Of a DNA stretch of 64,000 nucleotides, positions 5,860 to 64,000 are shown one piece after another. Where the stretch lies: the NCBI GenBank assembly GCA_963736855.1, contig CAVTQK010000006.1, positions 79,328 through 143,327 on the forward strand, in the 5' to 3' direction. The stretch comes from an uncultured delta proteobacterium (GTDB lineage Bacteria; Desulfobacterota; Desulfobacteria; Desulfobacterales; UBA2156). Position numbers and translations under genes: made by a program. The notes beneath the pieces are model-generated. The model made no database searches. It was not told where the DNA came from and saw only the letters and a program-made list of their open reading frames with translations. Positions within the stretch are counted from its first letter, which is position 1. Each line of letters begins with the position of its first letter.

Positions 5860-5864
5860 AAAGA

Positions 5865-8482: not shown

Positions 8483-8541
8483 ATGCTCGTAAACCATTCC
8501 GGGCCGGGGCCCAACCAAAGCATGGAGATGCGACCCATAAA

Positions 8542-9090: not shown

Positions 9091-9120
9091 TCGTATAAAT
9101 ATTAGGCCGGCATTTCGATC

Positions 9121-9996: not shown

Positions 9997-9999
9997 AAG

Positions 10000-10854: not shown

Positions 10855-10856
10855 AA

Positions 10857-12917
10857 ATGCTAAAAAAGGATTACCCTATGAATGCAACCGTGAACGCCTT
10901 CCTCAATCGACGGCGGCACCTTTTTTGCCTACTGGCATTGACCGTTACCATCTCCCTTGCAGCTCTCTTTGGTGTATTTCACCCGGGGGCTTTGGGTCAA
11001 AATCCTGAAAGCGTGAGTCCCGGGAATGCACAGAAATTAGGCCCCAATCAAAGCGACCAGAGTATTTCCATCGATTTCAACAATGTGGATCTTGCCGTTT
11101 TTATCAAATTTATCAGCGAGCTTTTAGGGAAAAATTTTGTAGTGGACGATCGCGTCAAGGGAAAAGTCACCATCATCTCTCCCAAGAAGGTCTCTATTAA
11201 AGAAGCTTACGATATTTTCGAGTCGGTTCTGGAAGTCTACGGCTACGCCGTCATACCGGCCGGAGAAATCCTCAAAATCGTCCCTTCTCCGGACGCCCGT
11301 ACCAAAAGCATCGAAACCCGGATGAAAGAAGACGCCGATTCCCCCGAAGACCGTGTCGTCACTCAGATCATTCCATTGAAATACGCGGATCCCGAGGAAG
11401 TCAAACGGCTACTTGCCCCATTGATACCGAAAAACAGCGTGATTTTAGCCTACTCCCCGACCAACACCCTGGTGGTCACGGATGTCTACTCCAACATCCG
11501 GCGGTTGATGCGCATCCTGGAAGTCATCGATGTGGCCGGTATCGATCGTGCTGTTTCCGTCATCCCCCTTCAATTTTCCTATGCCGAAAAGATCGTTAAA
11601 CTGATCGAATCCGTTTTCAAAACGTCTCAGCAGCCGCCAAAACCGGTTTCCGATCGTGAAGTAAAGGTCGTTGCCGACGAACGAACGAATTCCATCGTCG
11701 TCATCGCCAGTGAAAGTGATACTCTGAAGATCAAAAGGCTCATCGAGCTTCTCGACAAAGACGTCCCAAAAGGCAAAGAAAAGATCCATATTTATTATTT
11801 GGAAAACGCCGAGGCAGAGGCGCTCGCTAAAGTCCTTCAGGATCTTCCCGCAAAAGAAGAAGCCCCTAAGCCCGGTCAGCCTGCAGTACCGAAAAGGATA
11901 CAACCTTCGGTCACCGAATCTATCACCATCACGCCGGACAAGGCCACTAACAGCCTGATCATTCGCGGAGACGCGGACGACTACAAGTCACTCGAAGAAA
12001 TCATCCAAAAACTCGACATCCCGCGTTCCATGGTCTACATCGAATGCCTTATCATGGAAGTGGACGTAAACAAGGAATTCGAACTGGGAACGGAGTGGAG
12101 CGCGTTCGGAGGCGATCTCCGGGATGACGGATCTTTCCGGGGAGGAGGAGGAGGATTCAGCGGTAGCGGGTTCAACAAAATCCCTCCCATCGACCCGGAC
12201 ACGGGGCTCCCCACCCAGACGCTGCCTTCCGGCTTTTCTCTGGGGATATTCGAAACCATCAAAATCGGAAATGTCTATTTTCCGAACCTGGCCGCCATCG
12301 TGACGGCATACAAAAAAGACAAAGACGTGCATATCCTGTCTACTCCCCAGGTCCTGACCACCGACAATCAGGAAGCCAAGATCACCATCGGGAAAAATAT
12401 CCCTTACCAGACCAAGGAAGGAACCACATCCGCCAACGAGACGTACAGTACTTATGAATACAAGGATGTCGGCATTTCCCTCAAGATCACCCCTTCCATC
12501 AGCAAGGATCGCCTGGTTCGGATGAACATCTCCCAGGAATTTTCTCAACTCGAATCGACCACCGACTTCCGCCCCACCACCCTAAAACGCACCCTCGATA
12601 CCACGGTCATCGTCCATGATAATAATACCGTAGTCATCGGCGGTCTTATCGGGGACGCCTTTTCCAAAACCGAATACCGCGTTCCCTGTCTGGGGGACAT
12701 CCCGGTGGCGGGTTGGCTCTTCAGGTCCTTGGCCAAAGGAGGGGAAAAAACCAACCTCTTTGTTTTTTTGACCCCCCGCGTCATCAATAATGCCGCAGAG
12801 GCCAAGCGCATTTATGAACTCAAAAAAAATGAGTTCGATCGTCTACAGGAAAACCTTTCGAATCCTCGAAAAAAGGAAATGCCGGATGCAGGAAAAGCGA
12901 GGGACAACCGACCGTAA
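10857..12917 (+). CDS. gspD: T2SS outer-membrane secretin GspD
   Basis: 686 aa. N0/N1 domains (IDFNNVDLAVFIKFISELLGKNFVVDDRVKGKVTI) and a secretin C-domain (VIVHDNNTVVIGGLI...VPCLGDIPVAGWLFR). Confidence 0.9.
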   Translation: MLKKDYPMNATVNAFLNRRRHLFCLLALTVTISLAALFGVFHPGALGQNPESVSPGNAQKLGPNQSDQSISIDFNNVDLAVFIKFISELLGKNFVVDDRVKGKVTIISPKKVSIKEAYDIFESVLEVYGYAVIPAGEILKIVPSPDARTKSIETRMKEDADSPEDRVVTQIIPLKYADPEEVKRLLAPLIPKNSVILAYSPTNTLVVTDVYSNIRRLMRILEVIDVAGIDRAVSVIPLQFSYAEKIVKLIESVFKTSQQPPKPVSDREVKVVADERTNSIVVIASESDTLKIKRLIELLDKDVPKGKEKIHIYYLENAEAEALAKVLQDLPAKEEAPKPGQPAVPKRIQPSVTESITITPDKATNSLIIRGDADDYKSLEEIIQKLDIPRSMVYIECLIMEVDVNKEFELGTEWSAFGGDLRDDGSFRGGGGGFSGSGFNKIPPIDPDTGLPTQTLPSGFSLGIFETIKIGNVYFPNLAAIVTAYKKDKDVHILSTPQVLTTDNQEAKITIGKNIPYQTKEGTTSANETYSTYEYKDVGISLKITPSISKDRLVRMNISQEFSQLESTTDFRPTTLKRTLDTTVIVHDNNTVVIGGLIGDAFSKTEYRVPCLGDIPVAGWLFRSLAKGGEKTNLFVFLTPRVINNAAEAKRIYELKKNEFDRLQENLSNPRKKEMPDAGKARDNRP

Positions 12918-12956
12918 GCGCCAACCGGCACGAGGTTTGGGAGGAGAACAAGGGCC

Positions 12957-14717
12957 ATGCAAAACCGCCTGATTGAAGTACTCACCAACCGATTCCAGAT
13001 TCAAGCAGAGGATATCCGGGAGGCATTGACACTTCGGAACCGAAAAGGATCCGGTTTGGGAGATATTCTGATTCAGAAAAAATTGCTTTCTGAAGAAAAA
13101 CTCCTCGAAGCCTTTAGCCTGGTTTACGGTATCCCATATTGGCCGGATCTTCCCATGGAAAATATCTGTTCAGAGTTCACAAAGCGTCTGCCTATCGGTT
13201 TTTTGAAAAAGCATATCATGATCCCACTTTGGGAGCCTGAACCCGCGTTGAATCAAAGTCTATCGTCCGGGCCGAATGGAAAGGCGGAGAAGCCGGATCA
13301 AATTTCCTCACGGAGTTATGTCGTTGCGGTCCGAAGTCTCAACAGTCTCCAGGCGGTGGACGACCTGGTCCGGATCATGGGAATTGAAGATTATCGCCTG
13401 GTCCTTTCCACCAGAGGGGCCATCCTGTCGGCCATCAACATGTCCTTTGAGTTGTGCCGGGATTCGGCGGAGCAAATTGTTCAGGACATGGAGGAAGATG
13501 GGAAAGCGATCCTCAGTGAAATCAAGGACCGGGCCGACCTGTTAGACGACACCAGTGATGCACCGATCGTCAAATTGGTCAACCACATCATCTCTCAGGC
13601 CGTAAAAGCCAGGGCCAGCGACATCCACGTAGAACCGTATCATGACAGCTTCAAAATCCGTTACCGCATCGACGGAATCCTTTACGATACCCTCACCCCG
13701 CCAAAATGGATTCAGCCCGCCCTCATTTCGCGCATTAAAATCATGACTCAGATGAACATCGCCGAAAAGAGACTTCCTCAGGACGGCCGTTTTGACGTGA
13801 AAGTGGGAGACCAGGAGATCGATATCCGGGTATCCACCATTCCCACCGCCTTTGGCGAGCGGGTGGTGTTGCGGCTTCTCAACAAATCAAGCTCCCTGTT
13901 GAAGCTGACCGAAATCGGCCTGGAGGCCGAGCGACTGGCCGAACTGAAAAGCCTGATTCAGAATACCAACGGCGTCATCCTGATCACAGGCCCCACCGGC
14001 AGCGGAAAGACCACCACTCTGTATGCTGTTTTGTCATTTCTTAATACACCGGGCATCAACATCATCACCATCGAAGATCCCGTGGAATACCAAATCAAAG
14101 GGATCAATCAGATTCAGGTCAACCCCAAGATCGATTTGACCTTTGCCCGTGGGCTCCGCCATATTGTGAGGCAGGATCCGGATGTCATTCTCGTGGGGGA
14201 GATCCGAGACTTGGAAACCGCTGAAATCGCCGTCCAGTCGGCCCTTACCGGCCACCTCGTCTTTTCGACCCTTCACACGAACGACTCGGCCAGCGCCATC
14301 ACGCGTCTGGTAGATATCGGTATCGAACCTTTTTTAATATCTTCTTCCGTAAAAGGGGTCGCCGCACAGAGGCTGATCCGGGTTCTGTGTAACGAATGCA
14401 AAGAACCCTACACACCGGACGAAGCAGCGCTTCAGGCCATCGGGATTCCTCCGGATAAAGTCGCCGACGGAGCCATTTATCATTCCGTGGGGTGTCCGAT
14501 CTGCTTTCAAACCGGATATCGGGGCCGCATCGGCATCTTCGAGGTCATGACCATTGACTCGACCCTTTCCAACCTCCTTCTGAAGACTTACGATGCCAAC
14601 CGGATCAAGGCCCAAGCCGTCGAAAAAGGTATGGTGGCCTTACGTGAGGACGGTATCCGCAAGGTCCTGAAAGGAATCACTACCATTGAAGAAGTCCTGC
14701 GGGTTACCCAGAAATAA
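12957..14717 (+). CDS. gspE: T2SS ATPase GspE
   Basis: Walker A GPTGSGKTTTLYA, Asp/His boxes (VRQDPDVILVGEIRDLETAEIAVQSALTGHLVFSTLHTND), and a tetracysteine motif CNEC...CPIC. Confidence 0.9.
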   Translation: MQNRLIEVLTNRFQIQAEDIREALTLRNRKGSGLGDILIQKKLLSEEKLLEAFSLVYGIPYWPDLPMENICSEFTKRLPIGFLKKHIMIPLWEPEPALNQSLSSGPNGKAEKPDQISSRSYVVAVRSLNSLQAVDDLVRIMGIEDYRLVLSTRGAILSAINMSFELCRDSAEQIVQDMEEDGKAILSEIKDRADLLDDTSDAPIVKLVNHIISQAVKARASDIHVEPYHDSFKIRYRIDGILYDTLTPPKWIQPALISRIKIMTQMNIAEKRLPQDGRFDVKVGDQEIDIRVSTIPTAFGERVVLRLLNKSSSLLKLTEIGLEAERLAELKSLIQNTNGVILITGPTGSGKTTTLYAVLSFLNTPGINIITIEDPVEYQIKGINQIQVNPKIDLTFARGLRHIVRQDPDVILVGEIRDLETAEIAVQSALTGHLVFSTLHTNDSASAITRLVDIGIEPFLISSSVKGVAAQRLIRVLCNECKEPYTPDEAALQAIGIPPDKVADGAIYHSVGCPICFQTGYRGRIGIFEVMTIDSTLSNLLLKTYDANRIKAQAVEKGMVALREDGIRKVLKGITTIEEVLRVTQK

Positions 14718-23330: not shown

Positions 23331-23980
23331 TGGAAGATTTTTCAAGACGGATCGATTATTCCCTATACCTCGTTACAGACCGGGGTCTTGCTGGAGGAAA
23401 AAGCACCCTCGAAATCGTCCGGGCCGCGGTGATGGGGGGTGTGACCTGCGTCCAGCTTAGGGAAAAAAAGGGCTCCACCCGGGAATTTGTCGCCGAGGCT
23501 CTTGCTGTTCGCGACCTTTTGAGAAGTCTACATATTCCCCTCATCATTAATGACCGCCTGGACGTGGCCTTGGCGGTTCAAGCCGACGGTCTGCATCTGG
23601 GACAAACGGACATACCCCTTGAATTTGCCCGGCGCATCGTCGGAAGATCCATGATCATCGGCATCTCGGCTGAATCCGTAAATGATGCCGTCGAGGCGGA
23701 AAAGGGCGGGGCGGATTATATCAGCGTCAGCCCCGTCTTCTCGACCCCGACAAAGACCGACACCGCACCTCCCCTCGGACTGGAAGGACTTAAAAAAATC
23801 CGGGGACGGGTTGCACCCCCCTTGGTGGCCATCGGCGGGCTGAACCGGGAAAATATCGAAGCGGTCATCCGGAATGGGGCAGACGGGGTAGCCGTGGTAT
23901 CATCCATTGTCTGCGCACAAGATCCCATGCAGGAGGCACAAGAATTGAAACGTCTCATTCAAAAGGCCAGATCCACTTGA
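23330..23980 (+). CDS. thiE: Thiamine-phosphate synthase
   Basis: YLVTDR...VQLREK...GADYISVSPVFSTPTK motifs. ATG 23330 overlaps the thiM stop (TAATG); ORF-track start 23309 is the alternative. Confidence 0.85.
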   Translation: MEDFSRRIDYSLYLVTDRGLAGGKSTLEIVRAAVMGGVTCVQLREKKGSTREFVAEALAVRDLLRSLHIPLIINDRLDVALAVQADGLHLGQTDIPLEFARRIVGRSMIIGISAESVNDAVEAEKGGADYISVSPVFSTPTKTDTAPPLGLEGLKKIRGRVAPPLVAIGGLNRENIEAVIRNGADGVAVVSSIVCAQDPMQEAQELKRLIQKARST

Positions 23981-24981
23981 AACTTAAAGAGATCGGTGAG
24001 TTCGGATGGATCGACCGGATTCGCGGAGGATGCCTGATCCGCGAGGACACAATCCTGAAAGGAATCGGGGACGATGCAGCCGTTTTCTTCACCCGGCCTG
24101 ACATGGCCACACTGGTCACGACCGACTTGCTGGTGGAACGCGTCCATTTCCTGAAAAACGCCACTTCGGCATTCAACTTGGGATATAAGGCCATGGCCAT
24201 GAATTTAAGCGATATCGCAGCTATGGGAGGAGAGCCGAGAGAGGCTTTTGTCAGCATCGGGATCCCCCAAGATTGCTCCATTGAGTTCTTGGACGAACTC
24301 TACGAAGGGATGAAGCATCTTGCCGCCGAACACCGGGTGAACATACTCGGCGGGGATACCACAGGCTCTAAAACCGATCTCATCATCAATATCACGGTGG
24401 TCGGAACGATACCCCCTTCCGAGGTTCTTTATCGTCATGCCGCACAACCCGGAGACGCGATCCTGTCCACTGGATTTTTAGGGAACAGCCGGGCAGGACT
24501 TCACATTATCCTGGAAGGGATCCCGATAGATGCCCCCTTTCTCCAAGAGCTCGTGGATGCCCACCTGAAGCCCCGGCCCTACGTGCTCGAAGCAAGATTC
24601 CTGGCAAGTCTGGGAGGGGTCCATGCAGCAATTGATGTCAGCGACGGCCTGAGCTCGGATCTGGGCCATATCCTCAAGTCAAGCAGCGTAGGCGCGCAAT
24701 TGGTAGCCCAAAAGATCCCCATCTCCGAAAACCTGAAACGATTCTGCGCGAGATTCAGCCGGGATCCATTGGAATACGCTCTCTCCGGCGGTGAAGACTA
24801 CACCCTTTTGATCACGGTGTCTCCCGACAGGGAAAAAACGGTCCGCGAGGCTTATAAGAAAACCTTTGAAACCCCCTTATTCCCGATCGGCTGGATCAAC
24901 GATTCCCGAAAGCTGGAGATGGTGAGCACCTCGGGGGCCTTGAATAAGGTAACGGCGTCCGGATGGGATCACTTCAAGTGA
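23977..24981 (+). CDS. thiL: Thiamine-monophosphate kinase
   Basis: MKLKEIGEFGWIDRI...GIGDDAAV N-terminus, an AIR-synthase-like fold, and an ATGA overlap with thiE. Confidence 0.85.
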   Translation: MKLKEIGEFGWIDRIRGGCLIREDTILKGIGDDAAVFFTRPDMATLVTTDLLVERVHFLKNATSAFNLGYKAMAMNLSDIAAMGGEPREAFVSIGIPQDCSIEFLDELYEGMKHLAAEHRVNILGGDTTGSKTDLIINITVVGTIPPSEVLYRHAAQPGDAILSTGFLGNSRAGLHIILEGIPIDAPFLQELVDAHLKPRPYVLEARFLASLGGVHAAIDVSDGLSSDLGHILKSSSVGAQLVAQKIPISENLKRFCARFSRDPLEYALSGGEDYTLLITVSPDREKTVREAYKKTFETPLFPIGWINDSRKLEMVSTSGALNKVTASGWDHFK

Positions 24982-26746: not shown

Positions 26747-29068
26747 TTAAGCAGGGACGTCCCTGATTTCGATTCCCATGGACCGAAGCCGGTCCCGGAT
26801 TCGGTCCGCAGCGTCCCAGTCTCCGGCGTTACGGGCTGCTTCCCTGCTTTTGATGAGGGCAATGATCTCCGGGTTTGGTGTGCTGTCCTGAAACCGGAAA
26901 ATGTTTAAAACCCTGTCGATATCCTGAAATGCGCGGATAATCTTTTCAGCTCCCTTATCATCAATTTTTCTTTGCCGGATGTCGATGTTGATCTTTCTGA
27001 TATTATTAAAAAGCGACGCCAATGCCTCAGGCATATTTAAATCGTCATCCATGGCCGAAAGGAATCCATGCTTGATGTCATAAAGGAGTTGATCCACCTC
27101 GGGGTCCGGGGCTCCCCCTTTGATCTGCCGGAGGGAATGAATACAAGCGTCGATCCGTCTCAAAACACGTCTGGCTTCTTCCAGCCGATCCTGCGAAAAA
27201 GCCAGCGGCTTTCGATAATGATTGGAAAGAAGCCAATATCGAATTTCGCGGCCGGAGAACCCCTTATCAAACAGATCCTTAAGGGTCACTCCGCCTTGCT
27301 TTTTTTCCTTTTCTGCAGCGTTGAACAGGACCCGCTCACAGTGAATCCAGTAATTGGCCATGGGGTGCCCGGTCAAGGCCACGGAAATGGCGATGTGATT
27401 TTCATGGTGGGGAAAAACCAGCTCCCGACCGCTGGTATGAATATCGTACCGATCCCCCATGGACTTCCTGGCTATTGCCGCACACTGAAGGTGCCACGAC
27501 GGACGAACATTCCCCCACTCGGTCTTAACGAAAATCCCGCGTTTGAGTTCGGAAAGTCTCGACCGTTTCATGAGGGTGAAATCCCTGGGATTGTCCTTTT
27601 CGTATTCATCCAGATCCACCGTAGCCCCGAGCTTGATTTTATTGATATCGATTCCGGACAGTTTTCCGTAATCCGGGATCCGGGAAATATTAAAATAAAG
27701 GGATCTCAGCTTTTCATAGGCAAACCCGCTCTTCTTGAGGTCACGGGCCATCTGAACCATATCTTGGAGATTTCCGCTTGTCCGGGGATAGCTGTCCGCC
27801 GGCCGGACGCCCAGGGATTCAAGGTCCTTTTGAAACCATTGAATGTGCTCATCCGTAAACTCGGGAAGGGAGATATTGGCCGATTCCGATCCTGCCAGGG
27901 TTTTGTCGTCGAAGTCGGTGATGTTTACGATATGACGCACCGCATACCCCCGGTATCCGAGGTACCGGCAAAGCAGATCGGAAAATACGAATCGGCGGCA
28001 TTCTTCGATTTGCATTCGGGCATGTGCGGTGGGACCGCAGGTATAGAGCGAGGCCTTACCGGGAATCAGGGGCTTAAAGATCTCCTCTTTCCGGCTCATT
28101 GTGTTAAAGAGCCTCAAGTCCACCTTTTCTTTTATTGCAAAGAGAGTCGTGCTGAGATACCTTTCCCCGCCGTCCGGAAGGATTACCACCATGACACCCT
28201 TTTCCATGAGAGCGGCTTCCCTGCAAGCAATTGCCATGGCCGCGCCGCTGCTCATCCCTGCAAAAATCCCCTCTTCTTTGGCCAGCCGTCGGGTCATCTC
28301 GAAAGCTTCTTCATCCTCGACGTTGATCTTTTTATCCAGGCGATTCTTATCGAAGATTTCAGGCTGGTAAGCCTCTTTCATGTTCTTAAGCCCCTGGATT
28401 TTATGACCCAGGTAAGGCTCCACACCGATAATCTGGACGGCCGGATTGTATTCCTTCAGCCGCCTCGAGATCCCCATAAGGGTGCCTGATGTCCCCAGGG
28501 TCGCCACCACAGCGGTAACCGCTCCATGGGTCTGGCGCCAGATCTCTTCGGCAGTTCCATGGTAATGGGCTTGCCAGTTGGCATCGTTGTTATACTGATC
28601 CGGCATGAAATAAAAATTCGGATTCTCCCGGGACATCCGATAAACTTCCTCGATGGCGCCGTCGGTTCCTAAGTGTCCCGGGGTCAGAAGGATCTCCGCC
28701 CCCCGAGCCTTAAGGATTTTTCTTCGCTCTTCACTCACCGCTTCCGACATGGCCAAGAGGAGGTGGTATCCCTTCACTGTACATACCAATGCCAGGCCGA
28801 TTCCCGTGTTACCGCTGGTGGCTTCGATGACCGTTTTGTCGGGCTTCAAAAGGCCGCAATGTTCCCCGGCTTCAATCATGGAAAGCGCAGGGCGATCTTT
28901 CACCGATCCGCCCGGATTAAACGATTCCAGTTTCGCCAATAGCCTCACCCTCGGGTTGGGGTTTAACCGCCGAATCTCCACTATAGGGGTGTTGCCGATG
29001 GCATCAAGGATGGACTGGTTCATTCGTGCTGGATCCTCAAATTCGGCCAGAGCCTGCACGCATGCCAT
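26747..29068 (-). CDS. Fusion protein: PLP-dependent cysteine synthase (CysK/CysM-like) N-domain plus cysteinyl-tRNA-synthetase-like C-domain with degenerate class-I motifs
   Basis: Residues 1-310 carry NTPIVE, GGSVKDRPA (PLP Lys), TSGNTGIGLA and ILPDGGERYLST. From about residue 318, LRLFNTMSRKEEIFKP...LYTCGP...NITDFDDK...WHLQCAAIA...FPHHENHIA aligns to CysRS. However, HIGH is replaced by MQIE and KMSKS by KEKKQ. Confidence 0.8.
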   Translation of the reverse strand: MACVQALAEFEDPARMNQSILDAIGNTPIVEIRRLNPNPRVRLLAKLESFNPGGSVKDRPALSMIEAGEHCGLLKPDKTVIEATSGNTGIGLALVCTVKGYHLLLAMSEAVSEERRKILKARGAEILLTPGHLGTDGAIEEVYRMSRENPNFYFMPDQYNNDANWQAHYHGTAEEIWRQTHGAVTAVVATLGTSGTLMGISRRLKEYNPAVQIIGVEPYLGHKIQGLKNMKEAYQPEIFDKNRLDKKINVEDEEAFEMTRRLAKEEGIFAGMSSGAAMAIACREAALMEKGVMVVILPDGGERYLSTTLFAIKEKVDLRLFNTMSRKEEIFKPLIPGKASLYTCGPTAHARMQIEECRRFVFSDLLCRYLGYRGYAVRHIVNITDFDDKTLAGSESANISLPEFTDEHIQWFQKDLESLGVRPADSYPRTSGNLQDMVQMARDLKKSGFAYEKLRSLYFNISRIPDYGKLSGIDINKIKLGATVDLDEYEKDNPRDFTLMKRSRLSELKRGIFVKTEWGNVRPSWHLQCAAIARKSMGDRYDIHTSGRELVFPHHENHIAISVALTGHPMANYWIHCERVLFNAAEKEKKQGGVTLKDLFDKGFSGREIRYWLLSNHYRKPLAFSQDRLEEARRVLRRIDACIHSLRQIKGGAPDPEVDQLLYDIKHGFLSAMDDDLNMPEALASLFNNIRKINIDIRQRKIDDKGAEKIIRAFQDIDRVLNIFRFQDSTPNPEIIALIKSREAARNAGDWDAADRIRDRLRSMGIEIRDVPA

Positions 29069-54600: not shown

Positions 54601-55527
54601 TTAATTCACTTTAGGGCGAGGCAAAACTTTGGCCATTTCGGCGATTTCCGGGACCTTATGCTCCCACTCAATGGCCATAAGGTGCACGCCAGCCACCCCT
54701 TTCAATTCCTTAAACTCTTCGATCTGCTCCACGGCCATCTTGATTCCTTCCTCCCCCTGTTTTTTCTTGTCCACCCCCTGCAGGCGGCTGATGATCTCGT
54801 CAGGAACGTCCATCCCGGGAACCTTGTTCTTCATATACTTGGCCATGCCGATACTTTTCATGGGAGTGACCCCCGCCAGGATATAGGCTTTTTCCGTCAA
54901 CCCCATGTCGTTGGCTTGTTTGATGAATTCCCGGAATTTATTCATGTTGTAGATGCATTGGGTCTGAATGAAATCGACGCCGGCGGCGACCTTTTTGGCC
55001 AAACGATGCACCCGCCATTCAAAAGGATCGGCGAAGGGGTTCGCAGCTGCTCCGATAAACATTTTTGGAGCCCCGTCCAGATCGGCGCCGCTTAGGAATT
55101 TCCCCTCGTCCCGCATCTTTTTGACCGTAGCGATCAGCTGTATGGAGTCGATATCAAAAACTCCTTTGGCCTGAGGGTGATCCCCGAATTTGCAGTGGTC
55201 TCCGGACAGACATAAAATATTACGTATGCCGTGCGCGTAGGCACCCAGGATGTCCGACTGCATGGCAAGGCGATTCCGGTCCCGGCACACCATCTGGTAG
55301 TTGGGTTCGATTCCATCCTGGATTAAAAAAATGCAGGAAGCCCAGCTTGACATTCGGACCATTGCGGTCTGGTTATCCGTGATGTTGACCGAATCGACAT
55401 TCCCCTTCAAGAAAGCGGCCTTTTTTCGCACTTCTTCGGCGTTTGCACCCCTGGGTGGGCCCAATTCGCCGGTGAATGCAAAATGCCCTGCCCTTAAAAC
55501 CTTTTCCAAATTGCTTCCTGATTTCAT
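54601..55527 (-). CDS. metF: Methylenetetrahydrofolate reductase (acetogen/SRB-type MetF)
   Basis: MKSGSNLEKVLRAGHFAFTGELGPPRG...VNITDNQTAMVRMSS is typical of MTHFR. It is paired with the small GPCGG protein upstream. Confidence 0.8.
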   Translation of the reverse strand: MKSGSNLEKVLRAGHFAFTGELGPPRGANAEEVRKKAAFLKGNVDSVNITDNQTAMVRMSSWASCIFLIQDGIEPNYQMVCRDRNRLAMQSDILGAYAHGIRNILCLSGDHCKFGDHPQAKGVFDIDSIQLIATVKKMRDEGKFLSGADLDGAPKMFIGAAANPFADPFEWRVHRLAKKVAAGVDFIQTQCIYNMNKFREFIKQANDMGLTEKAYILAGVTPMKSIGMAKYMKNKVPGMDVPDEIISRLQGVDKKKQGEEGIKMAVEQIEEFKELKGVAGVHLMAIEWEHKVPEIAEMAKVLPRPKVN

Positions 55528-55581: not shown

Positions 55582-55815
55582 CTACTTCTTCTGCCCGGCG
55601 TTATCGGGTTTCGAGTATCCCGGTTGGACCAGGGTTCGAGGTCCGATGTCCTGCCAGTCATTGGCGGGATGCACCTTCATCATCAGATCGAGGCGCCCCT
55701 GCCTGGAAAGACGCTCAAAAATCATAAACCAGGCACAAGGCTGATCCGGATTGATTTCGCAGCTCCCTTTGTTGGTACCTCCGCAGGGACCGTTATACAA
55801 TCCCTTGGCGCACAT
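55582..55815 (-). CDS. metV: MTHFR C-terminal-domain zinc-ribbon protein (MetV-like)
   Basis: MCAKGLYNGPCGGTNKGSCEINPDQPCAWF signature, with the start at ATG 55815. The ORF-track extension to 55944 runs into IS-derived DNA. Confidence 0.65.
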   Translation of the reverse strand: MCAKGLYNGPCGGTNKGSCEINPDQPCAWFMIFERLSRQGRLDLMMKVHPANDWQDIGPRTLVQPGYSKPDNAGQKK

Positions 55816-55946
55816 GGTGTTATCACGGTCACACACTTCCAGGTAGTATATAATCTTTTGTGTAAATTTTAAAAAAGGGTAAAAAAAGGGCGCTTTTTCT
55901 TTAAAAGGGTTTTGGCAAAAAACACCATAAGAAAGGAAAAGCACCC

Positions 55947-56095: not shown

Positions 56096-56973
56096 ATGCA
56101 AATGAATCTGCAGCTGCATCACGTCGTCAGCGATATTACAGGTGCCACGGGAATGAAAATCATTCGTTCAATCATTGCGGGAGAACGTTCCGCCAAAAAG
56201 CTTGCCTCCTACCGAGACGTGCGCTGCAAAAAGTCCGAGCAGACTATCTCCGATGTACTAACCGGCAACTATCGTCCAGAGCACGTTTTTGCCCTTAAAC
56301 AAGCTGTTTCGCTATATGATTTCTATCAGGGGCAGATTGCCGAGTGTGATAAAGAAATTGAAGCGATGTTATCAAAGCTGAAAACTGAAAAGCCTGCACC
56401 GAACCAGACCCTTCCCAAGGCGCGTCACCGGACCAAGCAGAAAAACGAGCCTGATTTTGCCCTTCGCCAGTCGCTTTACATGTTGGTTGAAGTGGATCTG
56501 ACTAAAAAAACGGAATCGGTGCATACACGGCCTTGCGTCTTATTGCCGAATGCGACAACGATATGGGCAAATGGCCGACATTAAAGCATTTTGCATCGTG
56601 GCTCTGCCTATCACCCGGCAATAAAATATCCGGCGGCAAGGTGCTGGCGAGCAACAAGCGTAAAACCAAGAGCAGGGCAGCAACACTTTTTCGAATAGCT
56701 GCGGTGAATGTCGGAAAAACCCAGACCGCTTTAGGTGCATTTTATCAACGTTTATCCACCAGAATCGGCAAGGCAAAAGCCGTCACTTCCACGGCCAGAA
56801 AGCTTGCCGTCTTGTTTTACAATGTGATGCGGTACGGAACATCATTTGTTGAAACCGGTTCTGATTATTACGAAAAACAGTATATAAAAAAAGTTCTGCA
56901 AAACCTGTCCCGTCGAGCAAAAGATCTGTGCTTCGAATTGATAAAGATGAAGGGACATGCTGCTGCTCCGTGA
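56096..56973 (+). mobile_element. IS110-family transposase pseudogene: 5'-truncated (catalytic DEDD domain missing) and frameshifted
   Basis: NLQLHHVVSDITGATGMKIIRSIIAGE... then NGIGAYTALRLIAECDNDMGKWPTLKHFASWLCLSPGNKISGGK...ARKLAVLFYNVMRYG (Transposase_20 region). The frame changes inside the A7 run at 56504-56510. Confidence 0.8.
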
Positions 56974-57925
56974 ATGTTTCTTAGGAAAGCCACCGCGTAC
57001 TTTGCCAAGGAGTCGCTGCACGGCATGCGGTGATGGAGGAGATGCGACTCGACTATCCGTTGGGGTGTTGTGCCGGGTATTTGGGGTATCGGCCAGCGGA
57101 TTTCATGCCAGGCGCAGCCGTGGGCCTTCTCGGAGGGCGCGGGAAGAGGGACAGTTGGAAACTGAGATCCGGGCCGCCCACAAGCGTACGCGGGAGACCT
57201 ACGGTCCGGAGCGTTTGCAGCGGGATCTGGCGGCTCACGGAGTGCATATCGGGGTACATCGGATTAAGCGCATTCGTCGCAATCTTGGCCTGCGGTGCAG
57301 GCAGAAGCGAAAATTCAAGGTTACCACCGACTCTCGGCACAGTCTGCCGGTGGCCGACAATCTGTTGAACCAGCGGTTCCAGGCCGAGGCACCCTCCCGG
57401 GCGTGGCTGAGTGACATGACTTATATTCCCACCGATGAGGGGTGGCTTTACCTGGTCGGCCACAAGGACTTGTGCACCCGCAAGATCGTCGGCCATGCCA
57501 TGGGCGAGCGCATGACTCGGAATCTTGTGATCGAGTCGCTGCTGCGGGCTGTGGAGACCACAGGATCCTGTACCGGTCTGCTTCATCACTCGGACAAGGG
57601 GAACCAGTACTGCTCTCACGAATACCGAAAGATGCTCGATTGCCTCGGGATGACGGTCTCGATGAGCGGAACCGGGAACTGTTACGACAATGCCCCTATG
57701 GAGAGCTTCTGGGCAACGCTTAAGACCGAGTTGATCTTTCATCGACGTTTCGCTACCCGACTCCAGGCCATTCGGGAAATAACCGAATACATTGAAGTGT
57801 TCTACAATAGACACAGAATTCAGAAAAAGCTGGACTATTTTTCACCAGCGGCATTCGAACACCGATTCTATGAACAGCGGTTAGCAGCATGATAAATTGG
57901 TGTCCACTATTGACGACCGATACCA
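56974..57925 (+). mobile_element. IS3-family element remnant: last ~17 codons of orfA plus DDE orfB, 5'-truncated, with an extra frame break
   Basis: orfA tail LRKATAYFAKESLHGMR*. orfB has D (WLSDMTYIP), D (HHSDKGNQY) and E (YDNAPMESFWATLKTE). The N-terminal EEMRLDYP is in a different frame from VGVLCRVFGVSASG (break near 57059). The right end, near 57925, is a guess. Confidence 0.8.
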
Positions 57926-58154
57926 AGATATGGAATTCTTCAAACTTAAAAATTTTCGCGCTCCACGAGGCAAAGTAAGCTTTAGTCGGATGAACCGAAA
58001 TTTCACTTGACAGTGCATATTTCTCCACGATATCAAAAATTTGTAAGCCTTGACAACTGCAGGTTCCCATATCTTGGGGTGCAGATGATGCCAAAATATA
58101 TTCCATGCCCGCACTTAATCCGCCCAAAAAAAAGCGAGTTGTTATCAATTTTTC

Positions 58155-58184
58155 TTGACTTATGGAGGCGTATTGATTGAGAAT
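58155..58184 (+). promoter_or_regulatory. Sigma70-like promoter candidate upstream of the hdrA-like gene
   Basis: TTGACT (58155-58160), an 18-nt spacer, then GAGAAT (58179-58184). Confidence 0.25.
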
Positions 58185-58297
58185 TAAAACTTATGTTATC
58201 TGGTTTGCTGTCAGGGTGTTGATCAAGCCAATCGACGCCCAAATGAATAAGGATATTGATGTTAACCGCCTTAAGATTAATTTTTAAAGGAGTTTTA

Positions 58298-61200
58298 CAT
58301 GACCACTAAAGTTCATGGATCTGTAATGGTAGTAGGCGGCGGAATCGCTGGAATGCAATCCGCCCTGGATCTCGCCAATTCTGGATACTATGTGTATCTT
58401 GTTGAAAAGTCCGCAGCCGTCGGAGGGTTGATGTCCCAGATTGACAAGACCTTCCCCACAAACGACTGCGCCATGTGAATTATCTCACCCAAACTGGTCG
58501 AGGTCGGCCGGCACCTCAATATTGAACTCATTACAACAGCAGAATTAATTGATTTGCAAGGCGAACCTGGGCGGTTCAGCGCTCGGATTCGCCAGGAACC
58601 CCGCTTCGTAGACCTGTTAAAGTGTACAAGCTGCGGGGAATGTGCTAAAGTTTGCCCAGTGTCACTCCCCAACGAATATGATGAAAACCTCTCCCAAAAG
58701 CACGCCGCTTACAAACAATATGCCCAGGCTATTCCGGGAGCTTATGCGATCCAAAAGGCGGATAAAGCGCCTTGCCGTTTAGCCTGCCCTGCTGGTTTGA
58801 ATGTTCAGGGATATGTCCAGATGGTTGGCCAGGGTAAATACAAGGAAGCTCTGGAAATCATCATGGAAGATCTTCCCCTGCCCGGAGTACTCGGCAGGAT
58901 TTGCCCTCATGGGTGCGAAGAAGCTTGCAGGCGGTGTCAAGTTGATGAGCCGGTTTCTATTCGTAATCTTAAGCGCCTTGCAGCAGATCAATTTGATCCG
59001 CGCAAAATAGAAATCAAATGCTTGCCAAGAAGGGAAGAAAAGGTTGCAATCATTGGATCGGGTCCGGCAGGACTTTCAGCAGCTTATCAATTGGCTCGAA
59101 AAGGAATCCTTTCGACAATTTTTGAAGCACAGCCAAAACCAGGTGGAATGTTGAGATTGGGTATCCCCGATCATCGTCTGCCTATCGAAGTTCTGGATAG
59201 AGAAATAGAAGTCATTACCAATCTGGGTGTAGAAATTAAAACCAATTCACCTCTCGGACCGGACTTGACCGTTGATGACCTTTTTAAGAAGGGCTATAAA
59301 GCGGTTTACTTGGCAATAGGCGCCCATAAAGGGATTGAACTGGGTATCCCTGGTGAAAAAGCAAAAGGCGTCCGCCAGGGCGTTGAATTTTTACGTGAAG
59401 TAAACCTTGCAGGCAAAACAACAGTTGGCAAAAAAGTTGCTGTTATCGGAGGCGGAAATGTTGCCATAGATGTTTCCCGCGCAGCAGTTCGATTAGGTGC
59501 GGAGAAGGTGATGATCATCTATCGCCGGACAAGAGCCGAAATGCCTGCCTGGGAAGAGGAAATTCAAGCGGCGGAATCAGAAGGCGTTGAAATTACATAC
59601 CTTTCAGCACCTCAGGAAATTCTTATTGAGGATGGCAAAATCGTTGGGGTGCGCTGCATCCGGATGGAACTTACAGAACCGGATTCTTCAGGACGAAGAA
59701 GACCTGTGCCGGTTCCCAGATCGGAATACGACATTGAAATCGACCAGATTATCCCTGCAATCGGTCAACGTGCGGACCTGAGTTCTATCGAAGATGTTCC
59801 GGATTTGAAATTTACACGGTGGGGAACAGTTGAAGTTGATCCCATCACTTATGCAACAGGAAAAGAAGGTGTATTTGCAGGCGGTGATCTGCAAAGCGGT
59901 CCATGGATCGCAATCGGAGCAATTGCTACCGGGAAGGAAGCTGCCGAATCCATTTTCAGATTCATAGAGGGTCGTGACATGGCAGAAGGAAGGGAAGCCA
60001 TTACCAATGAAAATCCTGTTTACCAACCCATTCCTGAAAATGAGCCTCGTAAAGCCAGGGCAAAAATGCCGCATCTTCTTTTAGAAGAGCGGAAAGACAG
60101 CTTTAAAGAAGTTGAAATGGGGTTTGATGAGACTTCGGGAAAAGAAGAAGCCAAACGATGTTTGAATTGCGGTTATTGTTGTGAGTGTTTTCAGTGTGTG
60201 GGCGCATGTCTTGCAGGCGCTATCGATCATAGCCAGGTTCCGGTGGAAAGAACCATTGATGTCGGTAGCGTAATTCTTTCACCCGGAACTGAAGTCTTTG
60301 ATCCTTCAAAGATGGATGAATTTTACCATTATAAAACAAATCCCAATGTCATGACGGCATTAGAATTTGAACGTATTTTAAGCGCTTCCGGACCAACCAT
60401 GGGACATCTGGTTCGACCCTCGGATCACAAAGAACCGAAGAGAATCGCATGGCTTCAATGTATCGGTTCAAGGGATACCAACAGATGCGGAAACAGTTAT
60501 TGTTCTTCTGTTTGTTGCACCTATGCAGTCAAAGAGGCGATGATCGCCAAAGAACATTCCCACGGCGATCTGGATTGCGCTGTATTCTATATGGATATCC
60601 GGACATTCGGAAAAGATTATGAAAAATATTATAACCGTGCTCGTCATAAAAACGGTGTTCGGTTTGTTAAAGCCAGAGTTCATACCATTAACGAGGAGCG
60701 GGACAATAAAAATTTAATCATCCGATATGCAGATGAGACCGGTCAAATTCAGGAAGAAATTTTTGACATGGTGGTTCTGTCGGTTGGGTTGGAAGTACCC
60801 AAGTCAACAATTGAATTGGCAAAACGGCTCAACATTGAACTCAATCCCCATAATTTTGCTGTAACTCCGACATTTGCCCCGGTTGAAACCACAAGACCCG
60901 GCGTTTATGCTTCCGGTATCTTCCAGGGACCAAAGGATATTCCGAGTTCGGTTACTGAAGCAAGTGCTGCGGCGTGCGCTGCGGGCACATTCATTGCCGA
61001 AGGTCGCGATACGCTAACTAAAAAAGTCGAAGTTCCTGAAGAAATTGATGTTGCAAATAAGGAACCGCGGGTAGGTGTTTTTGTTTGTAACTGCGGCATA
61101 AATATTGCGGGTGTTCTGGATTGTAATGCATTGGTGGAGTATGCCAAGAGCCTTCCTAATGTGGCTTTTGCCAAGCAAAACCTCTTTACCTGCTCCCAGG

Positions 61201-62729
61201 ACTCTCAGGAGATAATGAAGAAAGATATCGAGGAGAACAATCTTAACCGTGTAGTGGTGGCTGCATGCACCCCTAAAACCCATGAAGCCATTTTTATGAG
61301 CACGATGGAAAGTATCGGTTTAAATAAGTACCTCTTTGAAATGGCTAACATCCGCAATCAGGATTCCTGGGTTCATGCAAATAATCCGGATCTCGGCACG
61401 AAAAAAGCGAAAGAATTGATTCGCATGTCGGTGTCTAGAGCTGCCAGTTTAAATCCCCTCAAAGAAAAAGTAATCCCAGTAACCAAGCGGGCGCTTGTCA
61501 TCGGAGGCGGGATTGCCGGTATGAATGCCGCGCTTGGGATTGCACAACAGGGGTATGATGTCGCTCTTGTGGAAAAGGAAAAAGAACTCGGTGGAATGGC
61601 AAGAAATCTTTTTCATACCATTGAAGGAGATGACATCCAGGCATACCTCAAAAAATTGATCGGAGAAGTGAAAAACAAATCCAAAATCAAAGTATATACG
61701 GACGCCCGTATTACTGAATTTAAGGGCTTTAAAGGAAATTTCGTCACAACAGTCACGGTTGGAGGAGAAAAACAGGAAATTAAGCACGGCATAATTATTA
61801 TCTCAACCGGAGCTAAAGAATATCGACCCAAGGAATTCCATTATGGAGAAGATCCACGCGTTGTTACTCAGTTGGAACTGGGCAAACGATTGGAGGAAAA
61901 GGGTGCTTCAGATATTTCAACAGCGGTCATGATTCAATGTGTTGGTTCTCGGAATGAAGAAAATGAAAATTGCTCTCGTATCTGTTGCCAGAATGCAATA
62001 AAGAATGCTTTGACAATTAAAAAAACAAACCCGGATTGTCAGATTTTTGTGCTTTACCGGGATATGAGAACTTACGGATTTTTGGAAGATTATTACCTAG
62101 AAGCCAGAAATCGCGGCGTCATATTTATTCGTTTTGAGCAGGAAGAACCACCGGTCGTCAGTAGCTCATCCGAAGGTCTTGTTGTACGAGTGAAGGATCA
62201 TGTGTTGCAGAGAGACATAGAGATTTCAGCAGATATTCTAGCGCTGAGCGCAGGCGTAGTTGCAGCGGATACCGATGAACTCAGCGGCATCATGAAACTG
62301 AATCGAAGCCCTGAAGGCTTTTTTATAGAAGCCCATGTGAAACTCAGACCTGTGGACATGCCCAGCGAGGGTATTTTCCTCTGCGGTACTGCCCATTCGC
62401 CGAAACTGATATCTGAAACCATTGCCCAAGCGCAAGCAGCCGCTTCTCGGGCGATGACATTCCTTGCCAAGTCAGAACTCAAGCTTTCTGCAATCACAGC
62501 TAAAGTTGATACGGATCATTGTGTGAAGTGTTTAACATGTGTTCGTTCATGCCCATTTGGCGTGCCAGTGTTTAATGAAAAGGAAAAGGTTATTGAAATT
62601 GATGAGGCGCTCTGTCATGGGTGTGGCATTTGTGCGTGTGTTTGTCCGAGGGAAACAATACAACTCAGTTACTATGAGGATGATCAAATAACCAGTAAAA
62701 TTGACGCATTGTTGGCGGAGGGGATGTAA
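58298..62729 (+). CDS. Giant HdrA-GltD-HdrA fusion flavo-iron-sulfur protein (HdrL-type) with a TGA (Sec candidate) at 58476 and a +1 frame break at 58440-58442
   Basis: AAGGAG plus ATG 58298 encodes [17 protein letters not shown]. After a 1-nt shift the frame reads [22 protein letters not shown], then continues as ORF 58554..62729. That ORF contains a GltD/NfnB-like module ([51 protein letters not shown]) and HdrA Cys clusters ([15 protein letters not shown]). It also has a second HdrA module ([27 protein letters not shown]) and a C-terminal 2x[4Fe-4S] region ([24 protein letters not shown]). Confidence 0.75.
58494..58511 (+). promoter_or_regulatory. Candidate SECIS hairpin for TGA 58476
   Basis: CUGGUCG-AGGU-CGGCCGG (7 bp including 2 G-U pairs), starting 15 nt after the TGA. 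Folded by hand only. Confidence 0.35.
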
Positions 62730-63152
62730 TGGCAGAATTTGAACCTAAAATTATTGCATTTTGCTGTGACTATTGAGGATATTCAGCCGCGGACCTGGCA
62801 GGTTCCATGCGACTGGAATATCCAACGAACGTCAAAATAATCCGGGTGCCTTGTACCGGAAAAGTTGATGTCATGCACCTTCTAAGGGCGATTCAAAAGG
62901 GCGCAGATGGCGTTTATTGCGTGGGCTGTTTGGAAGGGGCTTGTCATTATAACGCAGGTAACCTGAGAGCCCGGGAGCGTGTTGAATATGTAAAAAAACT
63001 TCTCAGAAGAGGTAGGGTTGGAGGGTGATAGGGTCAGGATGTATAATCTGACATCGGGTGAAGGTCCAACTTTTGCTGCATATGCAAAAGAAATGACCGA
63101 AAATATCAAAGCGCTGGGACCCAATCCATTAAAGAAATACACAACAACCTAA
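62729..63152 (+). CDS. mvhD: MvhD-like (methyl-viologen-reducing hydrogenase delta subunit family) protein with a TGA (Sec candidate) at 62774 and a +1 frame break near the A7 run at 62992-62998
   Basis: ATG overlaps the hdrA-like stop (TAATG). Reads [49 protein letters not shown]...GADGVYCVGCLEGACHY...EYVKK, then in the next frame EEVGLEGDRVRMYNLTSGEGPTFAAYAKEMTENIKALGPNP. The MvhD consensus is FCCNWCSYAGADLAG. Confidence 0.7.
62788..62811 (+). promoter_or_regulatory. Candidate SECIS hairpin for TGA 62774
   Basis: CGC-GGACC-UGGCA-GGU(U)CC-AU-GCG, with a bulged U, starting 11 nt after the TGA. Folded by hand only. Confidence 0.4.
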
Positions 63153-63157: not shown

Positions 63158-64000
63158 ATGGGATCAACTATGGCACAGAAAGAAGTCATTAAAATCGGGG
63201 GAAAGAAGAAGAGCAAGTTCTTGGACAAAGTCAGGGAGATCCTTCCTGAAGAAGGACACCTGAACATGTGTCTGACGTGTGGGCTCTGTTCCTCGGGATG
63301 CCCTGCGACAGGGTTGGAAGGGCTTGATCCGAGGAAAGTGCTTCGCATGGCTGCTCTTGGAATGGATGAAGAATTGTTAAGCACTACAATGGGCATGGAT
63401 GTGCAGTATGTGCTGGCGATGTATGGTCGCATGCCCTATGAAAATCGATATCCCACAATTGGTCTTTAATATGCGGAAAAGCTGGCCTAGTAGAAACTCG
63501 ACCCAAAGGCATATTAGGTTCATGTGATATGGCGTTAAGAAGCGATACGTGTAGCGCCATGGGAGCGACTGAAGAAGATTTTGAATTTGTTGTCAATGAT
63601 GTGCTGGAAGAATATCGGGAAGGACAACCTGAACTTGCAGAAATGCAGGCTCCCATCAACAAGCAGGGTGCAGAATTTTTCTTGAATCAGAATTCAAGAG
63701 AGCCGGTTACAGAACCCGACGAAATGGTTCCGCTATGGAAAATCCTTCATCTGGTTGGCGCAGATTGGACATATGGAACCAAAGGCTGGGCTGCGGAAAA
63801 CTATTGTTTATTCATAGCAGATGACGAGGGCTGGAAGCATATTGTCCAGGTCAAAGCAAAAGCGGTAGATGATCTGGGCTGTAAAGTCTGGCTCAATACG
63901 GAGTGAGGGCACGAACTATTTGCAGTCCGGGCTGGACTGAAAAAATTCAACATTCCTTACAAGTTTGAAATCAAAAGCATCATTCAATATTATGCGCAAT
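63158..64000 (+). CDS. HdrD/DsrK/GlpC-family Fe-S oxidoreductase (partial, runs off the window), two frame breaks and a TGA (Sec candidate) at 63904
   Basis: The first CxxCxxCxxxCP motif (CLTCGLCSSGCP) is in frame 63158. The second (CSMCWRCMVACP) is in the +1 frame from about 63381. The remainder (VETRPKGILGSCDMALRS...DDLGCKVWLNTE-TGA-GHELFAV...) is in a further +1 frame from about 63480. The frame stays open for 31 codons after the TGA to the window end. Confidence 0.5.
63919..63942 (+). promoter_or_regulatory. Candidate SECIS hairpin for TGA 63904
   Basis: UUU-G-CAGUCC-GGGCU-GGACUG-AAA, with a perfect 6-bp core stem, starting 12-16 nt after the TGA. Folded by hand only. Confidence 0.4.

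Follow-up and report, generated by a model that had tools for sequence, protein, structure and literature searches.

The open reading frame (ORF) track of the window (the whole 64-kb stretch of DNA that was analysed) starts an hdrA-like gene at 58554, and its frame can be followed further upstream across an in-frame TGA at 58476-58478. The question raised by this locus is whether this TGA ends a short peptide or is read as selenocysteine (Sec) within one long gene. The second reading is very probably correct, and the TGA was assigned as a Sec codon inside a single 1476-residue gene at 58299-62729. The features of this gene are listed below.

58299-62729, plus strand: hdrL-type gene, 1476 codons with the very probable Sec at residue 60, followed by a TAA stop
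58287-58292, plus strand: Shine-Dalgarno motif AAGGAG, 6 nt 5' of the ATG, read from the sequence
58299-58301, plus strand: start codon ATG, the first start past the in-frame TAA at 58278-58280
58467-58469, plus strand: TGC, Cys57, partner in the C-x-x-U pair and equivalent of HdrA Cys194 in the ungapped alignment with 5odc_A and 9sfi_A
58476-58478, plus strand: TGA, very probable Sec residue 60, equivalent of HdrA residue 197; TGA in relatives, Cys in distant homologs
58494-58511, plus strand: bacterial SECIS hairpin CUGGUCG-AGGU-CGGCCGG, with stems at 58494-58500 and 58505-58511 and the loop at 58501-58504

The upstream frame runs through the TGA into the ORF at 58554-62729 and is the same frame throughout. 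Read through, 58299-62729 consists of 1476 sense codons with the TGA as the single internal stop. A hidden 5' end of the hdrA-like gene had been proposed in a preliminary description of this DNA, and the ATG at 58299 with its Shine-Dalgarno motif and the frame open across the TGA bear this out. The TGA coordinates given there were exact; the upstream ATG and AAGGAG were indeed present, but both had been placed one base too low. AGGAG-like motifs were found at the equivalent place in most relatives; the most frequent layout among them, with 59 codons ahead of the TGA as here, was seen in 32/80. Since the TGA is taken as a genuine Sec codon with a recoding hairpin, the hdrL-type gene begins 255 bases 5' of the start on the ORF track.

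The TGA was placed by alignment with HdrA entries of the PDB. Residues 9-163 matched residues 146-300 of 5odc_A without any gap across the TGA (phmmer against PDB, E = 5.4e-50), and the N-terminal 227 residues were aligned ungapped to both 5odc and 9sfi (E = 5e-50 to 2e-45). The TGA column corresponds to HdrA residue 197, for which 5odc has Cys and 9sfi a non-standard residue (X), so that the earlier placement of the TGA at the second Cys of FPTNDC(S/A)MC holds. Sec197 of Methanococcus maripaludis HdrA, together with its Cys-Sec197 pair, has been published (PMC13518236). When homologs with Sec or with Cys were aligned, as had been proposed, TGA was found at this site in 80/80 related Desulfobacterales loci from different species (84/84 instances), among them those of the completely sequenced Desulfosarcina alkanivorans PL12 and D. 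widdelii PP31, and Cys was found in 119/120 more distant homologs. The relatives' loci were gathered by six scan patterns, none of which was able to select for TGA. The sole pattern spanning the site, NDCAMCII, spells Cys and thus could not match the TGA loci, which were brought in by the other patterns, placed in different parts of the protein.

The sequence after the TGA contains a hairpin with a 7-bp stem and a 4-nt AGGU loop, which begins 15 nt past the TGA in a region folding at -10.2 kcal/mol. The published bacterial SECIS model asks for a small apical loop, a G followed by G/U at loop positions 2-3 and a minimum free energy below -7.5 kcal/mol, and the stem, loop, 22-nt spacing and energy of the hairpin all agree with it (PMC13188914). 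All 18 nt of the hairpin are identical across paralogous copies and at least 80 species of Desulfobacterales, although synonymous sites on either side of it are saturated. Among 80 distinct sequences, zero synonymous variation was observed in codons +6 to +11, which form the hairpin, whereas the remaining degenerate codons from -45 to +60 have a synonymous entropy of 0.65-2.4 bits; the exception is Lys +5 (0.17 bits), directly before the hairpin. In contrast, seven homologs with TGT (Cys) differ from the hairpin at 1-8 of 18 nt, although five of the seven encode the identical LVEVGR peptide. In the Cys homolog of D. cetonica, GTG stands in place of GTC and GAA in place of GAG. Judged from the sequences compared, the synonymous-site invariance of the hairpin is specific to TGA-bearing sequences. 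The naming of this hairpin as a SECIS element in the preliminary description is thus supported by the bacterial SECIS model and by an invariance that accompanies only the TGA.

Other structural measures were less informative. The hairpin is the minimum free energy structure, but its folding energy is no better than that of shuffled sequences (z = -0.18 to -1.14), and it was therefore validated by sequence comparison instead of thermodynamics. In a consensus structure over 26 sequences (RNAalifold), all seven pairs were invariant and no compensatory changes were seen, because the hairpin never varies. Since covariation was uninformative, it was replaced by the synonymous-site entropy and the Cys-homolog control. 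No conserved extended lower stem was found around the hairpin in the 26 sequences, and a search of 57800-59200 with Rfam in E-value mode gave chance-level miRNA and snoRNA matches only and no SECIS family. Like the bacterial SECIS consensus (bSECISearch model; E. coli fdhF type), the hairpin is a stem-loop directly 3' of the UGA within the coding region. Compared with G23/U24 of E. coli fdhF, its loop GGU presumably lies about 5 nt farther from the UGA. Bacterial SECIS elements are generally described as dissimilar between genes, whereas the hdrL hairpin is invariant across the whole order. It is possible, though doubtful, that the SelB of this lineage reads the hairpin sequence with far greater stringency than the permissive bacterial SECIS model implies, or that the hairpin has a second role (e.g. 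selenium-dependent control of the hdrL-mvhD-metFV operon), with the C-x-x-U motif being obligately Sec in the clade. If true, this would offer a tractable bacterial system in which the relay proposed for HdrA in 2026, a selenenylsulfide between the FAD and the N-terminal cluster, could be tested.

The genes following hdrL carry similar signals, as listed below.

62729-63152, plus strand: mvhD (VhuD/FlpD family), ATG overlapping the hdrL TAA; FlpD E = 1e-48
62774-62776 and 62791-62805, plus strand: Sec codon TGA of mvhD and its hairpin; TGA in 44/44, invariant GCGGACCTGGCAGGT
63158-64000, plus strand: HdrC/HdrD/HmcF-like Fe-S gene, running past the window end
63904-63906 and 63923-63939, plus strand: Sec-type TGA of the HdrD-like gene and its hairpin; TGA in 3/3

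The order hdrL then mvhD was found in 44 loci and hdrL-mvhD-metF in 31 loci. In the window, metF and metV adjoin the hdrL region in divergent orientation, with an IS110 fragment and an IS3 transposase between metFV and hdrL, just upstream of hdrL; metF is thus on the opposite strand here, while in the 31 relatives it lies downstream on the same strand. The frames of both downstream genes are broken, that of mvhD by one extra base near 63004 and that of the HdrD-like gene twice in the same manner, near 63387 and at 63491, which makes three frameshifts within about 490 bp. Homopolymer slippage as their cause was not supported, since the extra bases aligned outside long homopolymers. The frameshifts may reflect decay of the operon in the source genome or indel errors in the assembly. 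A subtilisin-like gene (724-2428) and the IS110 transposase of the window look split as well.

The machinery for Sec insertion was also searched for. No tRNA of any kind, including tRNA-Sec (selC), was found in the 64-kb window by ARAGORN, and no selA, selB or selD was found in the window by an NCBIfam scan of 50 ORFs covering 2-57892. Since these 64 kb hold no Sec-insertion machinery, we infer decoding in the source genome. Related cultured Desulfobacteraceae possess selA/B/D together with Sec-containing HdrA, HdrL and MvhD (PMC2702500, PMC5109826), and the two further conserved pairs of TGA and hairpin within the same operon as hdrL suggest that the lineage uses Sec. ThiL (23977-24981) gave a weak paralogous match to the SelD model, below the cut-off.

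Two other readings of the TGA itself were considered, and both are very improbable. If it were a true stop, the locus would encode two products, a peptide of 59 residues and another protein with its start at the TTG at 58554 or farther downstream. Gene callers do annotate it so everywhere: the public call of the hdrL-type gene has 1190 aa instead of 1476, with the first 286 residues missing, and the best 120 database homologs are all N-terminally truncated (1190-1418 aa), lacking the N-terminal 58-286 residues. However, two database entries start directly after the TGA, which reveals the truncation as a gene-caller artefact. A stop would also leave the rest of the TrxR domain without its CxxC motif and its FAD-binding Rossmann fold, and a nonsense codon would not be expected to persist at a single column in 80 species when the protein is strongly conserved to either side of it and the hairpin behind it is constrained. 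It is just as improbable that an error of sequencing or assembly turned TGC/TGT into TGA, or that the TGA is decoded as Trp or Cys by a reassigned code or near-cognate read-through. The window does seem to hold some indel errors, and one database protein has W at the TGA column, where some pipeline read TGA as Trp. Against this, TGA is present in 84/84 independent assemblies, and the SECIS hairpin is under purifying selection only in TGA-bearing sequences. Furthermore, TGA is the ordinary stop for 21 of the 45 genes in the window; the code is therefore standard, and reassignment was rejected.

An explanation that accepts the Sec codon as ancestral and real for the family is that the operon here is decaying and non-functional, with hdrL recently orphaned and mvhD and the HdrD-like gene being pseudogenes. 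This is unlikely as well, if less so than the two readings above. It would fit the three single-base insertions relative to the relatives' loci L002 and L052, none of which is in a long homopolymer, the IS elements between metFV and hdrL and the reversed metF. On the other hand, hdrL is intact over 4.4 kb with its TGA, its invariant SECIS and all its domains, and both mvhD and the HdrD-like gene retain their Sec codons and hairpins. Since other genes in the window look split, assembly indel errors explain the frameshifts equally well. The preferred reading is a Sec codon within an intact hdrL-type gene.

The protein encoded by the complete gene was compared with known domain families, which gave the following modules.

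Residues 10-153 and 626-846: HdrA TrxR-like module 1 (Pfam, 5odc_A alignment)
Residues about 156-620: nested NfnB/GltD-like NAD(P)H module (Pfam, NfnA/GltD-like matches)
Residues 921-1075: HdrA N-terminal Fe-S domain and start of the second TrxR module
Residues 1324-1471: TrxR end and C-terminal 2x[4Fe-4S] domain

By these matches the product is a flavo-iron-sulfur protein of the HdrL type, in which one HdrA unit has an NfnB/GltD-like NAD(P)H module nested in it and is joined to a second HdrA unit. The full protein was aligned to HdrA 5odc_A in four segments (E = 4e-180). Fer4_20 and Pyr_redox_2 were found at residues 143-545 (Pfam), matches to NfnA, GltD and DPD at residues 155-634, and PRK12771 scored 574 bits, over its cut-off of 516 (NCBIfam). 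The NAD(P)H module is nested in the inserted ferredoxin domain of module 1, which bears C57-x-x-U60; the second TrxR-like module has no CxxC motif. The NCBIfam models HdrA2 and HdrA reached 954 bits (cut-off 1100) and 735 bits (cut-off 1400), each in four separate stretches. A canonical methanogen CoB-CoM heterodisulfide reductase HdrA was rejected as an identity, since these whole-protein scores are under the cut-offs; as predicted from its primary structure, the protein is HdrA-like in fold and motif and is not the methanogen enzyme.

A working model can be drawn from established bacterial Sec decoding and from known HdrA proteins. During translation, the mRNA hairpin would form 15 nt past the UGA and bring SelB-GTP-Sec-tRNA(Sec) to the ribosome, so that Sec would be inserted without termination. 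By analogy, Sec60 would be at the position of archaeal HdrA Cys197/Sec197, the residue contacting or ligating the [4Fe-4S] cluster of the N-terminal domain, and might, as in M. maripaludis, take part in a Cys-Sec selenenylsulfide-like link between the N-terminal cluster and the bifurcating FAD. The synteny suggests that HdrL, the Sec-containing MvhD and the HdrCB/HdrD-like subunit most likely make up a flavin-based module for electron bifurcation or confurcation with a link to NAD(P)H, which would serve the methylene-tetrahydrofolate reductase (MetFV) of the Wood-Ljungdahl pathway in a Desulfobacterales sulfate reducer.

That HdrA is a known selenoprotein family, as the preliminary description stated, is documented (PMC1794560, PMC2702500), and accounts of HdrA and HdrL with Sec date from 2006 and 2009. 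With the family so well established, what is gained is a corrected annotation and not a discovery. The gene adds to the known HdrA/HdrL selenoproteins, and the knowledge of Sec decoding and of HdrA is unchanged. Nevertheless, the hdrL-type gene and essentially all its relatives are mis-called in public protein sets, and the part lost at the N-terminus holds the redox-active C-x-x-U motif as well as the FAD-binding fold. As a result, metabolic inference from the domains of these abundant marine sulfate reducers uses decapitated proteins. The locus also provides an order-wide bacterial example of Sec at HdrA residue 197, whose role in electron bifurcation was called unresolved in 2026, and a three-selenoprotein operon linked to methylene-THF reductase.

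Among known systems, HdrL of HRM2 (L1, L2 or L3) is, by its description, alike in being a soluble HdrA-like protein of large size that has Sec and, nested within it, an NADH-binding domain similar to the glutamate synthase small subunit, in being followed by mvhD (often itself a selenoprotein) and in coming from a Desulfobacteraceae sulfate reducer with complete substrate oxidation (PMC2702500). HdrL was called unique to HRM2 in 2009 (PMC2702500), whereas here it was found in at least 80 Desulfobacterales species, often beside metFV and not dsrABC. HdrA of M. maripaludis (Sec197, 9sfi) and of Methanothermococcus thermolithotrophicus (Cys197, 5odc) shares with it the position of the Sec, the motif DKTFPT.DC..[C/U]I..PK and the TrxR-like FAD domain (PMC13518236, PMC9012536). 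However, archaeal HdrA is a homodimer of about 650 residues with an archaeal SECIS in the 3'-UTR, while hdrL encodes a 1476-residue fused, permuted double HdrA with an NfnB-like insert and has an in-frame bacterial SECIS. The N-terminal Fe-S domain contacted by residue 197 sits, unlike in archaeal HdrA, in the second half of the same polypeptide.

The MetFV-HdrABC-MvhD complex of Moorella thermoacetica, as cited in PMC9012536, is alike in its linked hdrA-like, mvhD, hdrCB-like, metV and metF genes and in a fused double HdrA where Cys197 and the N-terminal domain complement each other in the same way. Compared with that account, the present locus differs by its divergent metFV, the IS elements between metFV and hdrL and the NAD(P)H module fused into HdrL. 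BamE of the class II benzoyl-CoA reductase is also a fused HdrA dimer whose first TrxR module has the bifurcating FAD (bioRxiv 10.64898/2026.04.10.717634). It differs by its published description, which mentions no NfnB/GltD-like insert and places it in a tungsten-dependent aromatic-ring reductase complex. Its Cys59-Cys62 pair occupies nearly the same positions as C57/U60 of the HdrL-type protein, and Sec19 of the MvhD-like adaptor BamF is comparable with Sec16 of MvhD here (bioRxiv 10.64898/2026.04.10.717634).

The gene structure of hdrL, the giant HdrA-like gene, was demonstrated by following its frame upstream of TTG 58554, where the mechanical ORF list begins the gene. The TGA-containing frame upstream is continuous with that ORF. 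Four elements were read from the sequence and are followed by a hairpin:

58278-58280 (+), in-frame TAA upstream of hdrL
58287-58292 (+), AAGGAG (Shine-Dalgarno)
58299-58301 (+), ATG start of hdrL, after the in-frame TAA
58476-58478 (+), in-frame TGA
58494-58511 (+), hairpin CUGGUCG-AGGU-CGGCCGG, 15 nt 3' of the TGA, the minimum-energy structure of the region

With read-through, the frame 58299-62729 comprises 1476 sense codons and a single internal stop, the TGA at 58476-58478. The preliminary description of this hidden 5' end had the frame, the TGA and the hairpin as found here, while its ATG and AAGGAG were each placed one base off. An ATG with a Shine-Dalgarno sequence followed by 59 codons to the TGA is the commonest layout in the relatives, as in the window, and the open frame 3' of the TGA has at least 1400 codons in 62 of 80 relatives.

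The alignment with HdrA is gapless across the TGA, which corresponds to HdrA residue 197 in the motif DKTFPTNDC-x-x-[C]-I. The structures 5odc, 8rvv, 8rvu and 7bkb have Cys here, and 9sfi_A has a non-standard residue, printed X. For the Hdr-Vhu-Fwd assembly of Methanococcus maripaludis, studied by cryo-EM in 2026, Sec197 was reported at the equivalent HdrA position; there a Cys-Sec link joins the A3 [4Fe-4S] cluster to FAD, and the authors termed its role unresolved (PMC13518236). The best 120 database homologs of the hdrL product are all N-terminally short (1190-1418 aa), and two of them begin immediately past the TGA position. When one genome was scanned for each species, 80 loci were obtained, all of Desulfobacterales type with 76-84% identity, among them the complete genomes of Desulfosarcina alkanivorans PL12 and D. 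widdelii PP31. The aligned codon is TGA in all 80 loci (84/84 instances when second copies are counted). No pattern among the six used in the scan could have selected for TGA; the one that spans the site, NDCAMCII, spells Cys and therefore does not match the TGA loci, which entered via patterns elsewhere in the protein. Among 120 more distant homologs spanning the site (at most 72% identity), 119 have Cys and the remaining one shows W, that is, TGA translated under another code. The proposal that the TGA sits at a conserved Cys column was thus borne out, and the Sec/Cys pair of hdrL is demonstrated. In three loci from other genomes (L001, L056 and L078), a second HdrA-like paralog lies about 5.2-5.4 kb downstream of hdrL with the same TGA and an identical 18-nt hairpin; in L001 at least, whose copy was read completely, the protein sequence diverges right after the hairpin.

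The hairpin has a 7-bp stem, the loop AGGU, a 22-nt spacing and a folding energy of -10.2 kcal/mol, all in line with the published bacterial SECIS model (PMC13188914). By energy alone the region was not significant against shuffles, an Rfam search of it gave no family match, and no covariation was seen in the stem because the stem never varies. The six codons +6 to +11 from the TGA (CTG GTC GAG GTC GGC CGG) have no synonymous variant in 80 distinct sequences. The other degenerate codons from -45 to +60 have entropies of 0.65-2.4 bits, save Lys +5, just before the hairpin, at 0.17 bits. The sole change within the hairpin codons is in the loop (AGGU to AGUU, Val to Phe; 6/80 sequences). Seven homologs carry TGT at the site, and in them 1-8 of the 18 hairpin nt are changed; five of the seven encode the identical LVEVGR peptide. 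Synonymous invariance in the TGA sequences together with divergence in the TGT homologs places the constraint at the RNA level and links it to the TGA. We regard this synonymous-site constraint as the decisive evidence for a SECIS element; an RNA hairpin under selection is demonstrated for hdrL, and the preliminary description was right in both observation and interpretation. Two of these Cys (TGT) homologs, L082 (Desulfosarcina cetonica) and L085, are two and one substitutions, respectively, from the Sec-clade hairpin, and their sequences have the look of fossil SECIS elements remaining after a Sec-to-Cys conversion.

Two further TGA-hairpin pairs were found downstream of hdrL:

62729-63152 (+), mvhD (FlpD/VhuD family), its ATG overlapped by the hdrL TAA
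62774-62776 (+), Sec-type in-frame TGA of mvhD, FCCDY-U-GYSAADLAG in the window (motif FCC-x-[YF]-U-GY-x-AADLAG)
62791-62805 (+), small hairpin with GGC loop, formed by the invariant GCGGACCTGGCAGGT 3' of the mvhD TGA
63158-64000 (+), HdrC/HdrD/HmcF-like gene following mvhD and running off the window
63904-63906 (+), Sec-type TGA of the HdrD-like gene, WLNTE-U-GHELF
63923-63939 (+), 6-bp hairpin 3' of that TGA

The mvhD TGA, then the invariant GCGGACCTGGCAGGT, is present in 44/44 related loci; the ORF list gives mvhD only after Met 62807. The TGA of the HdrD-like gene is kept in all three loci having the gene (the window and two related loci, L002 and L052), and its hairpin loop is GGGUC in L002 and L052 and GGGCU in the window (a Val to Ala change). 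Multi-selenoprotein operons with HdrA, MvhD/FrhD and GlpC-like proteins have been documented in Deltaproteobacteria (PMC1794560). Compared with both L002 and L052, the window has three additional single bases, one near 63004, one near 63387 and one at 63491, none in a long homopolymer. Over about 490 bp, the frame of mvhD is broken by one of them and that of the HdrD-like gene by two; hdrL itself is intact. Either assembly error or early gene decay (pseudogenisation) accounts for the extra bases. Another apparent frameshift splits a subtilisin-like protease with a CFI-box-CTERM domain into two ORFs, 724-1521 and 1472-2428, which overlap and lie in different frames.

TGA is the ordinary stop of 21 of the 45 genes in the window, which therefore uses the standard genetic code. 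No tRNA gene, selA, selB or selD was found within the 64 kb. Sec decoding in the source organism is inferred from the three separate TGA-hairpin pairs of the operon, which are under purifying selection, from the conserved TGA in relatives and from the Sec machinery published for cultured Desulfobacteraceae (PMC2702500, PMC5109826). By the established bacterial mechanism, SelB-GTP-Sec-tRNA(Sec) would bind the hairpin and the UGA would be recoded.

Pfam assigned to the hdrL product FAD/NAD Rossmann domains, a Fer4_20 + Pyr_redox_2 unit (residues 143-545) and a C-terminal two-cluster ferredoxin domain. Against solved structures, HdrA (5odc_A) was matched with E = 4e-180 in four pieces, which demonstrate the domain order:

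product residues 10-153, HdrA 147-290
product residues 626-846, HdrA 292-510
product residues 921-1075, HdrA 2-156
product residues 1324-1471, HdrA 500-649

Residues ~156-634 match NfnA, NfnI-alpha, GltD and dihydropyrimidine dehydrogenase modules. The four-piece match and the NfnA/GltD-type match together define the product as a double HdrA, fused and permuted, whose first unit has an NAD(P)H module nested within its inserted ferredoxin domain. The product scored under the NCBIfam cut-offs for methanogen HdrA and for HdrA2; judged by its sequence, it is HdrA-like and not the methanogen enzyme. Chadwick et al. described Cys197 of one HdrA protomer as a ligand to the other protomer's N-terminal cluster, and fused HdrAs with Cys197 kept in one half and the N-terminal domain in the other (PMC9012536). 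The hdrL product shows the complementarity of these fused forms, with its CxxU motif in unit 1 and the N-terminal domain in unit 2. By analogy with HdrA structures, Cys57 and Sec60 would adjoin the FAD in the first TrxR unit, and their interaction partner would be the [4Fe-4S] cluster in the internal N-terminal-type domain.

The region upstream of hdrL contains:

54601-55527 (-), metF, divergent from hdrL
55582-55944 (-), MetV-like gene ('methylene-THF reductase C-terminal' domain)
56096-56584 and 56533-56973, IS110-family transposase fragment split over two frames
56957-57892, IS3-family transposase after the IS110 fragment

Insertion of the two IS elements separates metFV from hdrL. Thirty-one relatives have hdrL, mvhD and metF in that order on a single strand, with metF downstream, and this synteny ties the hdrL family to methylene-THF reductase. 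A similar link is provided by the Moorella MetFV-HdrABC-MvhD complex, as cited in PMC9012536. From domains and synteny, the complex would use flavin-based electron bifurcation or confurcation to couple NAD(P)H, ferredoxin and the MetFV reaction.

As the preliminary description stated, HdrA is a known selenoprotein family. Its recognition in bacteria and archaea dates from 2006 at the latest, that of HdrL from 2009. The protein is of a known kind, and its Sec lies at the position seen in a solved structure; what is gained is a corrected annotation and a clean demonstration, by comparison, of a SECIS element. Elsewhere in the window, a single 773-residue ORF at 26747-29068 (-) joins cysteine synthase (CysM/CysK, residues 17-311) to cysteinyl-tRNA synthetase (CysS, residues 318-771), a fusion that is unusual, if real. 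A complete type II secretion cluster (gspF, G, H, I, K, L, M, N, C, D, E) occupies 2504-14717.
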